From Octopus vulgaris (taxonomy: Eukaryota): a stretch of DNA of 64,000 nt. The notes under the pieces are model-generated. The model did not search any database. It had not been told where the DNA came from and saw only the letters and a program-made list of their open reading frames with translations. The stretch spans positions 132,990,001 through 133,054,000 of the forward strand of contig OX597817.1 of NCBI GenBank assembly GCA_951406725.2, read 5' to 3'. Each line of letters starts with the position of its first letter. Position 1 is the first letter of the stretch. A program made the position numbers and the translations under genes. This document shows positions 180 through 8,325 of this stretch, piece by piece.

Positions 180-430
180 TGTTTATCAATGTGTGCTGCA
201 AGATTCCTGGTATGAAATCGTGTATTGAAACAGGTATTGTTGTATTATTGTATTCAGGATGGTCATTTTTTTTTTCTTTTGCCAAATAAACACACGCGCT
301 GTATATACGCTCTTCACTCGTTCATTACTGTTCTTGATTTAACTCATGTCCATTCTCCGGAAATCTTTTGTCACACATTTGTGACCTCCTCAGCGACACT
401 TTTCATTTTCGTGTGTGTCACGAAAATAAT
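180..430 (-). mobile_element. (TA)n-associated PLE-like terminal repeat, family H1
   Basis: Shares gtg(t/a)ttgaaacag...ttc.g.atggtcat...gcca(a)ataaa...cacacgc with 7678-7900, 8215-8325 and 39866-39900. Lies next to (TA)n and contains a hammerhead motif on the minus strand. Confidence 0.6.
357..396 (-). ncRNA. Degenerate minimal type-I hammerhead ribozyme (family H1)
   Basis: Minus strand reads tcg-CTGAGGA-G-GTCACA-aatg-TGTGAC-AAAA-GATT-TC-cgg. Stem II is 6 bp; the conserved GAAA is mutated to AAAA. Confidence 0.6.
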
Positions 431-484
431 ATCTATTTCAACACACGCTTTCTCATCAGAAATTTTTTTGATATATAAATTGAT

Positions 485-640
485 ACTCGAAAATCGGAGT
501 AGGTAAAACAGTGAATAACTTATGCTGCCTGTCTCGTTTCTCTATATGTTTCTTACGTTGTCCGAAAAAAAGTTCGTTTTCCCTATTTTTGTTGTTTTAT
601 GTTCTCGTTTTTCATTTTCATGTCCGGTAGCCATATACGC
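485..640 (+). mobile_element. (TA)n-associated repeat, family H2
   Basis: tcgaaa..ggagtag...tgtcc.gta.ccata. Homologous copies in the opposite orientation at 31095-31182 and 32258-32430; all border (TA)n. Confidence 0.55.
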
Positions 641-1697
641 ATGTATATATATATATATATATATATATATATATATATATATATATATATATATATATAT
701 ATATATATATATTTCGTTTTTGGGTTTGGTTTGCAAGATTCTTTATATGAGTTCGTGTGTTGAAGCATATTCTGTTGTGTCAGGGGAGAATCATTTTCTT
801 TTTGTGACTTATTATGTAACACACTCACCAGTAAAATTTCCACGTTTTTCTTATTTATATTCTCCTAAAATTTTCGTTGCGTTTTGCAAACTTTTCAATA
901 ATTTTGACTCTCCCCAGACACAACAGATTATATATACATACATGTAGGTATGTACATATATGTATGTATATATGCATATATATATTATTTATATTATTAT
1001 ATGATCGAAAGTCATTTCAAAATAAATTTATATATATATATACACACACACACACACACACACATATTTATATGTGTGTGTCTGTGTATAATACAAACAT
1101 AATATGTTTGTACACACGTATAATTATATCACAACAATGCATTTTTATTTACACGTTATATGCGTGTTTGTGTGTGTGTGTCTGTCTGTCTGTCTGCGTG
1201 TGTGTGTGTGTGTGTGCGTGCGTGTGTGTCTGTGTGTGCGCGTTGATAGATAGATAGATCGCAAAATAATGTTCGCTAAATTCTTTTCATATCCGAAACA
1301 ATATCAGTATTATAATTGTTGTTATTGCTGTTGTTGTAGATGTTGGTGGTATTATAAATAAATGGCGTAGGACTAGAGTAGACCTTGGTTCATTATTCAC
1401 TAATCAGCGTGACATCTATTTCTGTGAAGGCTCCACGCTGTAAACACGTAACTGAATCACAGGGTCAAGGGTCAGAGTTATGTATACGTACGTACACACA
1501 CCCACACAACCAAATATACAGATGTTGTTTGATGCCATAGCAATCCAGAAACTTCCGGAGAATGTGAAATAATTTGTTTTACAAATAATGGCATGTAAAT
1601 ATTGGGTTGAAAATCTTTTGAGTGTGTCTGTGTGTATGGGTGTGTATGTGTGTGTGTGTGTGTGTGTGTGTGTGTGTGTGTGTGTGTGTGTGTGTTT

Positions 1698-2425
1698 GGG
1701 TGCGGGCGTGGCTGTGAGGTAAGAAGCTTGCTTCCCAACCAGATGTTACCAGGGTCAGTCACACTGCATGGTACCTTGGGCATGTATATATATATATATA
1801 TATATATATATATATATATATACAAATAGATAGATAGATAGATTGATAGATAGATAAATAGATATAGATATATACATACTTATATATAAATATATTCATA
1901 TATATATACATATATATACACACATATATATGCATATATGCATATATATATATATATATATATATATATATATATATATATATAATATATATATATATAT
2001 ATATAAAGCACCGGTCTTCGATGAAGGAGTCCCGAAACTATAGTCCGTATGTAGTACTATATATATATATATATATATATAATATAAACACATAAATGTG
2101 AAACAAGGTAGAAAAAAGAGTACTCAAATCACCAGGGGTAGAGTAATATGCTTTATTTAAAAGCAGCAGAAATTCAACAAAATATATATATATATATATA
2201 CCTATATGTATATTTGTATATTTATATCTTTGTATGTATATGCATGATTGCATATGCATATATATGTCTAGTCCATGGTGATATGTTTACCTCTCTATAA
2301 CTTAGCGGTTCGGCAAAAGTAACCAGCAGATAAGTACTATTCTAAAGGCAAAAAAAAAGAAAGAAAGAAAAACAAGTGCTGAGGTCGATCCATTCGAGGC
2401 AAGTGATTGACAAATAAATGATAAA
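1698..2425 (+). mobile_element. SINE-A split by an expanded internal (TA)n tract that holds PLE-like fragments
   Basis: Head gtggctgtgaggtaagaagcttgcttcccaacc...accttgggca at 1698-1782. Tail taacttagcggttcggcaaaag...ataagtact at about 2270-2425. Confidence 0.7.
2011..2050 (+). ncRNA. Degenerate hammerhead-like motif inside (TA)n
   Basis: TCGATGA-A-GG-agtc-CC-GAAA-CTATAG-TC: variant core, palindromic stem III (ACTATAGT) and a GUC triplet. Stem I is poor. Confidence 0.4.
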
Positions 2426-5059: not shown

Positions 5060-5924
5060 ATGTAATGTGCTCATGTATTTGAAAATCCAGAAAATTACAA
5101 CCGATAAAATGAATCTGTATGTGGTATATAAAAACATATAAGAAAGAATGAGAGGGAGATGTCTATCTATTTACTTGACTTTCATAGGATTACGGCTGTT
5201 TCGCAACCGTCTTCAAATAGTATTAATTTCAGTATGCAAGAATTATGCGCACGTGTTTGCATCAATATATATGTATACTCAGTAATATAAAATACAATTG
5301 TAGACCCACAAATCAATGGAAATAAAGTGATCAGATTTATTTCCGTCAGATTATGCCAACACTTCAACTCTAAATACACACACACTCAAGCACACACACA
5401 CACTCCCGCACACACACACACACATGCACCAGTATCTGATGAGGAAAATGCGTTTTCATGCTTCATTGGTTTATTTCTTCGCTGATGACCATCGATCACC
5501 CACTTCCACACCGTTGTCTTTTCTAGCCGTCGTTTATTGTGCAAACTCCGTTCCCATGTCTAGCACTCTCTTAACCTTCCTCCCTTCCCTTCTTCCCCAT
5601 CTCTCTCTCTCTCTTTCTCTCTCTTTCTACTTCCCCTTCACTCGCTTCTTACATATGTAAATCTACACCGACTCCAGTCGACATTTATTTCAACTTATAA
5701 AGCCCTTACGCATGCGCAGATACCCAACTAGGGAACTCACTTGGATCGAGTAAAACTAGGAAGGTACAAACTGTATGGAATCCGTTGCATGAAGTGTACC
5801 AGTAATCTACAACGTTCATTTCGTCTCTGACAGTGTCACATTGAGTCGTTCACAAGTTTAGACAGAGTCCAAGTATCGGTGTTCGGTGTACTCAACCACT
5901 TTTACTATTCGTCGTATCACGCAG

Positions 5925-6296
5925 TCAGTTACGACGACGAGGGTTCCAGTTGATCCGATCAACGGAACAGCCTGCTCGTGAAATTATCGTGCAAATGGCT
6001 GAGTGCTTCACAGACACGTGTACCCTTAACGTAGTTCTCGGGGAGATTCGGCGAGACACGGTGTGGGAAAAGGCTGGCCCTTTGAAATACAGGTACAACA
6101 GGAACAGGAAGAATGAATGAGAGAAAGTTGTGGTGAAAGAGTATAGCAGGGTTCGCCCCCCCCCCCCCGCCGGAGCATCGGGGAGTTTTTAGGTACTTTC
6201 GTTCAATAAACACTCACAACGCCTGGTCTGGGAATCGAAACCGTGATCCTGCGACCACGAGTCCGCTGCCCTAACCACTGGGCAAGTGTGCCTTCA
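5925..6296 (-). mobile_element. SINE-C (tRNA-derived head, tail type 1)
   Basis: Minus strand head gcccagtggttagggcagcggactcgtggtcgcaggatcacggtttcgattccc; tail ggatcaactggaaccctcgtcgtcgtaac. Homologues at 25385, 31385 and 44260. Confidence 0.85.
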
Positions 6297-7677
6297 CGAC
6301 TTCTACTATTCTATTACACAGTAAGTAAGTAGGTGGTTCAGATCATTGATCGACTGGATTATCGATCAGCGAAACCGATGAGGGTTCAATATATTTTTTA
6401 TTCTTCCATAGAAACATTAATTCAATTGATTTGAGAATAAATAGAAACACCAAGTGTTTGTCAAAACATATTTCTTACTTTTCTCTCTCTAGTTCTCTCT
6501 ATACATGCATACACACATACATATGAATATATATATATATATATATATATATATATATATATATATATATATATATATATATATATATTTAAGCAAGTGT
6601 GCATGTTCGTATATATGTATGTATTTTGTACATAAACAATCACGTACACATACACACACAAAAACACATATATTTATATTTATATTCGCGTGCGCAAATT
6701 AAACAAACGTTAAGACACCAACGAACAACCGTTATTCAGCTATTCAATCAAACCAGCTAACCAAACCATAAAATAATGCAGGAAGAAATGCAATGAAATA
6801 TATATTTTAGATACACAAAACTTATTAAAAATACACACATAATAAAGTTGATCCTCTGAGCTATATAAATACTAATTATAGACAGATGAACACATAATAA
6901 AAAAAAAATCTCGTAAAACAGAAACTAAACTGCATTACAGCTAACTACAAACCGACATTAGCAATATAGTACAAACAACATTCCAATACAAAATTGTTTA
7001 GCATAACAAGACATGCATATCAACGTAAATGTATGCTATGAGTGACCAGCATGTTTTATGAATGAGAGTGGAAAATTGAGAGTTATAAACTTAACGACTA
7101 TAACTGTTGCATTGGCCTAACACTTGCGACATTCATCTGTCAATTCACCATGCTCCTACAACAGCGAGTCATTGCAAAGCGCTATATGAAGTAATAAAAG
7201 GCTTTTCTGTGACAAGGCCTTAGTGCGCGGTTGAATTACCGCTGCATTCCACCCAATGTAGTTCTATGTGGTAGGTGGTTTCTTCCTCCTCAGTTTCAAT
7301 TAAAATATTCGTCGATCTGAGCTCTATAAAAAAATTATATTTAGCCACATTGCTACGGGGTAGGATCATACCCATCGAATTATGATTGCGAAGCCAACTT
7401 CTTAACCATCGACAATTCTGAGCCCACAATCAAGCGCGCACGCACACATACACACACACATATACACACACATGCATAGCCACATTGCGCATACACAATA
7501 TATATGTACACATATATATTGCATGTATATATATATGCTTATATATATATATGTGTGTGTGTGTGTGTATGTATGTGTATGTATGTATGAATGTATGTAT
7601 GTATGTATGTATATATATATATATATATATATATATATATATATATATATATATATATATATATATATATATATATA

Positions 7678-8325
7678 CGTTTAAATATTTGTTATGCATG
7701 ATTTTTTATGTGAAGTCGTGTGTTGAAACAGATATTTCGGAATGGTCATATTGCTAGTTTAGCCAATAAAAACACACGCACTATATATTTGGTGTTATTT
7801 TGCTTCAGTGTTATTTATTTTTTTTTTACATTAATCTTAATCTTATTTCGGCCAGAGTTCTTTCGTCACACTCCTGTGACCGCATCAGTGGTCCTTTGTT
7901 TTCTTCTTTCTTATTTGTGTCTCTCCTTACTAACCGTCAGCCATTTTGTATTTCTATTGTATGTCTTCATTTGCGCATGCTTATATCTCTATGTGCGTTT
8001 ATGTTTATTTAGTGTGTGTATGTGGGGGGGATGCCTGTAATATTTGTATCTTCTGTTTATAATTTGTATTTTGTTTTTGTTGTTTTTGTTTATTCTTATT
8101 TTGTTCATGTGTTTACATCCACTTATTATTATCATTACATATGCTTGTAAGTTTGTATGTATGTATAACAACAATACTAGTAATAATAATAATAAATCGA
8201 ATCGAAAAAAAAATTAAATTAAGATTAATGTAAAAAATAAATAACACTGAAGTAAAATAACACCAAATATATAGTGCGTGTGTTTTTATTGGCTAAACTG
8301 GCAATATGACCATTCCAAAATATAA
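7678..8325. mobile_element. Family H1 element with about 110-bp inverted arms (7733-7845 and 8215-8325), flanked by (TA)n on both sides
   Basis: atttcggaatggtcatattgc...ttaatcttaa is mirrored by ttaagattaa...gcaatatgaccattccaaaat. Confidence 0.75.
7850..7894 (-). ncRNA. Minimal type-I hammerhead ribozyme (family H1)
   Basis: Minus strand gga-cca-CTGATGC-G-GTCACA-ggag-TGTGAC-GAAA-GAAC-TC-tgg-cc. Same stem II as 357-396, with a different loop and a compensating stem I. Confidence 0.7.

Follow-up and report, generated by a model that had tools for sequence, protein, structure and literature searches.

We describe here two small hammerhead ribozyme motifs in a stretch of 64,000 nucleotides of Octopus vulgaris (contig OX597817.1, positions 132,990,001 to 133,054,000), called the window in what follows, and the Penelope-like elements (PLEs) that carry them. 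Both motifs lie on the minus strand. Copy 1, at positions 357..396, reads tcg CTGAGGA g GTCACA aatg TGTGAC AAAA GATTTC cgg, and copy 2, at positions 7850..7894, reads cca CTGATGC g GTCACA ggag TGTGAC GAAA GAACTC tgg: the common stem II, the differing loop and the switch in stem I are all as claimed in the original prediction, which was made on the letters of the window. In both copies a stem I arm is followed by CUGANG-x and an extra G, next by the 6-bp stem GUCACA/UGUGAC, then by x-AAA and a 6-mer as potential stem III, and last by the cut nucleotide and the other stem I arm. The extra G, on which the original prediction is silent, stands between positions 9 and 10.1; an extra nucleotide at this place, together with the pair G10.1-C11.1, is a mark of the minimal type-I hammerheads of PLEs. 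Each copy deviates from CUGANGA/GAAA at a single position, by G12A at 369 in copy 1, which is a CpG transition, and by A9C at 7882 in copy 2. A chance origin of the motifs can be dismissed, because, with a relaxed descriptor that requires a 6-bp stem II, three motifs are found in the window and one across 40 Markov-resampled windows, and because reversed control patterns have zero matches genome-wide.

The two copies had been taken as members of one family, H1. They fall in two separate families, A and B, that are 32-34% apart over some 200 columns of the pseudo-long terminal repeat (pLTR). Copy 1 lies in a 5'-truncated pLTR fragment of family A (181..418, minus strand), whose tail end adjoins a (TA)n array and which blastn aligns to family A copies at 77-78% over 180-270 nt; its cut is predicted at 360/359, and its stem III 6-mer is AGAUUU. 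At its 5' junction is a short inverted piece of the 3' end of family A, with uncertain limits (425..462, plus strand; blastn 84% over 38 nt, E 7e-6). Copy 2 lies in a 5'-truncated copy of family B, of the subfamily that we call C9/C17 (7677..8212, minus strand), which comprises part of the 3' untranslated region (UTR), the pLTR and the tail, and which blastn aligns to the full unit in locus L065 at 89.6% over 559 columns. Its 3' end is at a (TA)n array, and its 30 best genome matches are at 92-100%. Its cut is predicted at 7855/7854, and its stem III 6-mer is AGAACU. The first codons of the open reading frame (ORF) of the family B element run through the optional 56-nt tail (7677..7749, minus strand; tblastn places residues 2-30 at 7763-7677, with the ATG about 100 nt past the predicted cut). 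An inverted pLTR piece without hammerhead and without tail, followed by (TA)n, closes the 5' end of copy 2 (8211..8331, plus strand; blastn 95.9% over 121 nt).

The genome that we searched measures 2.8 Gb. Longer relatives of copy 2 extend upstream into the ORF, and locus L065 contains a whole element: a hammerhead, an open frame of 1,312 codons, and a hammerhead. Full elements are about 4.6 kb long, in the order hammerhead, 101 nt, ATG, ORF (reverse transcriptase (RT), CX4CX2C linker, GIY-YIG endonuclease), 3' UTR, hammerhead. The ORF has the motifs DKSG and YVDD in the RT, the linker CTDNYCTVC at residue 1186, and VVYSIRC...YVGET in the GIY-YIG domain, whose residues Y, Y, G, R, C, H, H are invariant across 59 relatives. 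Pfam gives RVT_1 (E 0.0013) and GIY-YIG (E 0.0025), both short of the cut-off, on parts of the ORF, and no family on the whole protein; a sequence search of PDB returned nothing useful. The predicted model of the protein has a pLDDT of 89.8, its top three fold matches are telomerase TERT, and the protein is 99% identical to one labelled Octopus vulgaris. The unit period is about 4.6 kb in nine elements, seven of which have 272-274 of 274 pLTR positions identical, and the ATG is 101 nt past the predicted cut in all nine intact elements. Insertions are in (TA)n, often with an inverted 5' piece such as the one at 8211-8331, and the element ends that adjoin (TA)n come with the 56-nt tail (12 cases) or short, without it (11 cases). 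GIY-YIG remnants of about 70% identity are present in copies of family A, the sister of family B, as well.

A single ORF with a telomerase-like RT plus a GIY-YIG at its C-terminal end, pLTRs that derive from partial tandems, inverted 5' pieces and an optional tail are the marks of an endonuclease-bearing (EN+) PLE, and a CX2-5CxxC linker before the endonuclease and (TA)n targets are those of the Neptune and Nematis clades. By its sequence, the element fits a Neptune- or Nematis-type PLE as in PMC8557442. The recovery of full elements with RT and GIY-YIG bears out the claim that the motifs are minimal type-I hammerheads of PLE terminal repeats. We rejected a non-LTR retrozyme, that is, non-coding tandem monomers of a few hundred bases: the motifs sit at the ends of a coding 4.6-kb element.

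Some observations on the frames of the element can be added here. In L065 (2513-6448, minus strand) the ORF has a low-complexity insert rich in Asn and Ser, of about 250 residues, that precedes the RT. An AUG within the family B core (L065 6500-6575 and window 7829-7885, both minus strand) opens a frame of 19 codons, whose phase is that of the main ORF, located 132 nt further downstream; A9C (AGG to CGG) and C17U (CTG to TTG) are both silent in this short frame. This AUG is absent from family A, and the frame may be due to chance. An intron linking it to the main ORF was rejected: a stop codon, seen by eye, follows the join, and no such joint is found in the contigs of runs guessed to be RNA. 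In locus L063 (2665-3267), two pieces are nested between family B copies: one of a subfamily with only 58% protein identity (frameshifted, by gapped tblastn), and another RT fragment that is unrelated.

How common are the two core deviations? Genome-wide pattern counts give 1,207 motifs with A9 and 3,615 motifs with another letter at position 9, so descriptors based on CUGANGA miss about three quarters of the motifs of this family (3,615/4,822). The other letter is C in 97 of the first 100 non-A9 matches. Copy 2, used as a query, retrieved 30 loci, the first being copy 2 itself, and all of them carry C9. The exact 45-nt C9/U17 form occurs 1,294 times, and the exact 35-nt A9 form of family B 384 times. 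A further census was obtained by choosing copies by their downstream sequence only, and not by the hammerhead pattern. In young family B, 26 of 27 copies so chosen have C9 and none has A9; the 54 copies of old family B divide into 40 with A9, 12 with C9 and two with T; in family A, A9 is present in 42 of 47 copies and G12 in 38 of 47. The core CUGANGA...GAAA...NUH is thus intact in the majorities of family A and old family B, and young family B, the group of copy 2, departs from it by C9. The original prediction also held that each copy has its own core lesion. A deviation at one position each is indeed what we see, and G12A in copy 1 is private, an ordinary decay since the majority of family A keeps G12. 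A9C is not a lesion of copy 2 itself: it is the majority state of its family, a fixed character of the youngest autonomous lineage.

The subfamilies of family B grade in divergence from A9, the oldest, to C9/C17 and then to C9/U17, the youngest. In copies picked by pattern, the median divergence from their own majority is 10.5% (n=19) and 4.9% (n=11) in two A9 groups, 2.7% (n=15) in C9/C17 and 2.2% (n=5) in C9/U17, four tandem copies and one T9 copy being set apart; family A copies are at a median of about 18% from theirs (n=52). A tree built on the flanks only, with 61 of 149 copies and family A as root, places most C9 rows within A9 rows, though exceptions occur and the support is weak. In the contigs of one DNA-like run each of organisms A, B and C, the share of depth with A9 is 19, 16 and 14%, and the share with U17 is 33, 9 and 7%; a fourth such run, with only 25 contigs, has 60% A9. 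Contig depth in these runs is not copy number, but the figures hint at a C9 that is older than the separation of the three organisms. As to expression, none of the listed runs with the sequence is recorded as RNA. Contigs of four runs guessed to be RNA cover the pLTR with A9 and C9 letters mixed; ends, strand and level are unreadable in them, and they are not used as evidence.

Two further groups of loci were seen in the course of the census. Loci L194-L223 belong to older related families that share stem II and A9 and have a loop II of 5 nt; a subset has U17 and a GA(A/G/T)CU stem III; RT and endonuclease remnants of 45-60% identity are found near some of them. Loci L025-L028 (G000:C1 76.76-76.99 Mb) form a local cluster: these family B copies are almost identical, their stem III is shorter by one base, and segmental duplication has apparently spread them.

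A protein search with the endonuclease, in which we scored the best 132 of 10,478 candidates and which favours relatives of its C9/U17 query, found nine intact RT/GIY-YIG frames of 1,310-1,312 codons. These nine ORFs differ by only 0.03-0.66%, and the hammerheads that flank them are C9/U17 in 18 cases out of 18. Over 595 codons, the majority of C9/C17 (32 pieces) and that of C9/U17 (56 pieces) differ with pS 0.108 and pN 0.017 (differences per synonymous and nonsynonymous site; p 2e-13): the ORF is under purifying selection between the two C9 subfamilies. The enzyme therefore stayed selected, which implies a long autonomous propagation while C9 was carried.

The ribozyme itself was compared between the same two subfamilies: it has one change in 45 nt, its flanks five in about 180, and synonymous sites 40 in 372. 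Its rate of change is no lower than that of its flanks (p 1.0); the pLTR as a whole is constrained, and the ribozyme not detectably more. We also looked at the 5' boundaries of insertions, which show no pile-up at the predicted cut in any subfamily: none of 71 boundaries in family A, and none of 69 in old family B, lies within 2 nt of it. Cut RNA therefore is apparently not a common template in any subfamily, and the absence of a pile-up is in line with uncut RNA as template, in agreement with PMC11167929.

Next to A9C, two other sources of damage were considered. U17 as a second lesion was rejected: it is permitted by the NUH rule, and is also found with A9 in older copies. A Watson-Crick pair between C9 and G12 is weak in folding (probability 0.06-0.08), so we do not argue for misfolding.

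In the active hammerhead, A9 pairs with the general base G12 as a sheared pair. A9C is predicted to break this pair, which positions the general base, and would thereby cripple cleavage. We can sketch a history in which the ancestral pLTR RNA would have cleaved itself in dimeric form, probably weakly and aided by the element protein. Reverse transcription would start on uncut RNA, at either of two sites that lie downstream of the ribozyme, and for that reason A9C may have been of little cost to the element. The persistence of stem II and the flanks is likely due to constraint on the whole pLTR, presumably as promoter, as protein binding site and as ORF start. On these grounds, drawn from sequence comparison, we think that family B, as represented by copy 2, probably kept multiplying after the A9 of its core became C, likely because self-cleavage is dispensable for its retrotransposition, and we predict that its ribozyme cuts poorly or not at all. 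This would be a natural counterpart of an in vitro result on an Anolis element. A bolder statement is conceivable, though we would rather doubt it: an autonomous canonical PLE lost self-cleavage through A9C and then had its largest expansion, which would make it the first natural case of dispensability in vivo, the ribozyme possibly being a brake whose loss released amplification.

Several points weigh against the dispensability of cleavage in family B. Old-type flanks are present on 14 of the 30 C9/GAAG copies, and the succession of subfamilies is thus a mosaic; C9 therefore arose early, in a mosaic transition. Exact-pattern copy counts favour young subfamilies. The ribozyme has no visible decay since C9 when its single change is set against the synonymous sites (1/45 vs 40/372, p 0.11). 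In young family B, the 5' boundary of three of 39 copies does fall within 2 nt of the cut; truncated copies are over-represented in this set, and most such junctions have microhomology. The boundary test is negative in the families with intact cores too, so it cannot separate A9 from C9. No intact A9 element is found among the best 132 of 10,478 matches, and given the bias of the query such elements may exist. Finally, the strong damage expected from A9C rests on the sheared G12-A9 pair and on a general statement about core changes. This statement, in PMC3088659, is that most core changes cause a drastic loss and some variants are tolerated, and A9C is not among the variants named there.

These reservations give some room to the idea that C9 is a tolerated natural variant, which would still cut slowly, or only once folded by the element protein; the core might be rearranged by the extra G that follows position 9. 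Cleavage would then still be used, possibly for the processing of tandem transcripts or for the cap-independent translation of the ORF that begins 101 nt downstream. Every other position of the core and of stem II remained intact through the history of C9; PLE hammerheads are slow (PMC4209133) and can be assisted by protein (PMC11167929); natural core variants of low activity exist (PMC3088659); and the cleavage of a viral 5'-UTR type-I hammerhead can promote translation initiation (PMC13725137). However, the ribozyme is conserved no better than its flanks between the C9 subfamilies, the stem III of family B forms no stable self-duplex (+1.4 kcal/mol vs -5.0 for a perfect palindrome), and no substitution of A9 is found in the 56 published representatives, the supplementary alignment of PMC4209133 having A9 in 56/56. 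We hold this explanation to be unlikely. The least probable of all, in our opinion, is that C9 transcripts are cut in trans by the RNA of older A9 copies, in a dimeric fold with the core from one strand and the cut site from the other. Dimeric cleavage is established for this class of hammerheads (PMC4209133), and at least 384 family B copies with the exact A9 core have the same stem I arms, but the two RNAs, both rare, would have to come together by way of stem I arms of 3 bp and a stem III that is unstable, and no intact element among the 132 scored matches has A9. There is also the picture drawn by the original prediction, two independently decayed relics of one ancestor with a perfect AGAUCU stem III. 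The intact majority cores of family A and old family B agree with it, and a remote palindromic ancestor is suggested as a possibility by four of 20 AGATCT loci that fall in the older 5-nt-loop families; the subfamily-wide A9C, the refutation of private lesions already given, and the rarity of AGATCT, detailed below, make it very improbable.

Does the pairing support an ancestral ribozyme? In 61 aligned motifs, 96% of the cells pair. Two-sided change at the level of families is seen at one pair only, the basal pair of stem I (G-C vs A-U); one-sided changes affect two pairs, and stem II is invariant, an invariance imposed by the search pattern. The covariation that had been announced between the two copies thus reduces to one compensatory pair of stem I, a single phylogenetic event between families, and it does not amount to a significant covariation signal. 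The majorities of family A and old family B have no difference at 23 positions of core and stem II vs 64 in 199 columns overall (p = 8e-5, partly ascertained). An ancestor with an intact and selected hammerhead core is well supported by these sequences and by the intact majorities of both families, in line with the proposal that the ancestral element had a working ribozyme. With E values up to 10 allowed, the covariance models of Rfam assign no hammerhead family to copy 1, to copy 2 or to an intact A9 copy; since even the intact copy has no match, these models fail to cover this form of hammerhead. The Rfam scan of the whole window gave only microsatellite-driven miRNA matches among the matches listed (150 of 812).

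The palindrome A-GATC-T, proposed as ancestral stem III on the basis of the two copies, fared less well. AGATCT after stem II has only 42 scattered occurrences genome-wide; 20 of these loci were inspected, and divide into 11 of family B, four of family A, four of the older 5-nt-loop families and one unclear, those in families A and B being sporadic changes. Family A has T at that position of the palindrome in 47 of 47 copies. The older 5-nt-loop families have 693 matches with at most one mismatch, and in 38 of their motifs, two loci of which overlap, GATTTC is present in 11 and GATC in two. The predicted self-duplex of stem III has an energy of 0.0 for AGAUUU, +1.4 for AGAACU and -5.0 kcal/mol for AGAUCU: the stem III of family A is self-complementary only by way of two G-U pairs, and that of family B has two A-A mismatches. 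We reject the palindrome for families A and B; it is a blend of the two.

The hammerheads of PMC4209133 are the closest point of comparison. Like them, the octopus motifs are of type I, with a long stem II with G10.1-C11.1, one additional nucleotide that separates position 9 from 10.1, a short stem I and a tiny stem III; like them, they occur in each of the two pLTRs of a full element, and in truncated elements they stand singly or as inverted motifs. Unlike them, the young octopus lineage has C9, and the stem III of family B is not palindromic. The extra nucleotide is G in the octopus motifs vs a consensus H in PMC4209133, where G is present in one listed motif and where the alignment has no cephalopod. 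The minimal hammerhead of PLEs as such, including the extra nucleotide, is thus already known from PMC4209133, and what would be new, judging from the sequences, is an A9C core fixed in a young autonomous lineage. We did not find such a hammerhead in the literature searched, which does not cover the text of Lunse et al., so its absence from print is not established. Those authors, as cited in PMC6765202, have PLE hammerheads with short stem III cleave as dimers; the octopus motifs resemble these in their very short stem III, and a dimer is presumed. As to the EN+ PLEs of Neptune and Nematis (Craig et al. 2021, PMC8557442), their tail is 30-40 nt long vs 56 nt in the octopus element, which has an ORF of about 1,310 codons with its Asn/Ser-rich insert; canonical hammerheads are described in all such PLEs, whereas the core of the young octopus lineage is non-canonical.

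The role of the hammerhead in PLEs is an open question, and authors have seen in it a processing device, a passenger or a parasite (PMC4209133, PMC8557442). Its sole direct test is in vitro (PMC11167929), on Poseidon PAc of Anolis carolinensis: ribozyme mutants insert normally, and cleavage needs the element protein. PAc, like the octopus element, has a pLTR hammerhead with two 3' ends downstream of it, one on either side of the tail, and no sign of cut RNA as template. In PAc, engineered mutants showed the dispensability in vitro, and the ORF begins within the ribozyme; the octopus lineage, which has multiplied, has a natural change fixed in its core, and its ATG is 101 nt past the cut. The octopus genome offers matched versions of an element that have the invariant A9 or lack it, among them intact and nearly identical full-length copies, and it keeps a graded series, A9, C9 and C9/U17, in which a loss of cleavage could be assayed. 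A9C turns the question of the PLE ribozyme into a simple assay that is informative either way: if the C9 ribozyme is dead, an autonomous PLE spreads without cutting, and if it is live, it is a new tolerated core variant.

Other motifs were observed in the window. Another element with two facing hammerheads, forming an inverted pair, adjoins copy 2 at 8487-8725: its member at 8536-8589 (minus strand) has an intact core and the perfect palindrome AACGUU as stem III, and its member at 8619-8672 (plus strand) has one core change. A small hammerhead-like motif at 10535-10579 (plus strand) has a CCGAUGA core, a 4-bp stem II and an AACGUU stem III. A further one, at 3387-3455 (minus strand), has an intact core without the extra nucleotide, and a 4-bp stem II that closes a 28-nt loop; a 16-nt piece of this motif is duplicated directly beside it. 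More short fragments of families B and A, without hammerheads, are at 633-716, 702-794, 39785-39901 and 44545-44636. Repeat finding across the window is dominated by microsatellites. A long inverted repeat at 34894-35966, with arms of about 285 nt at 88%, comes from another high-copy element, pieces of which are also present at 11145-11266, 14354-14638, 38226-38347 and 59303-59426.

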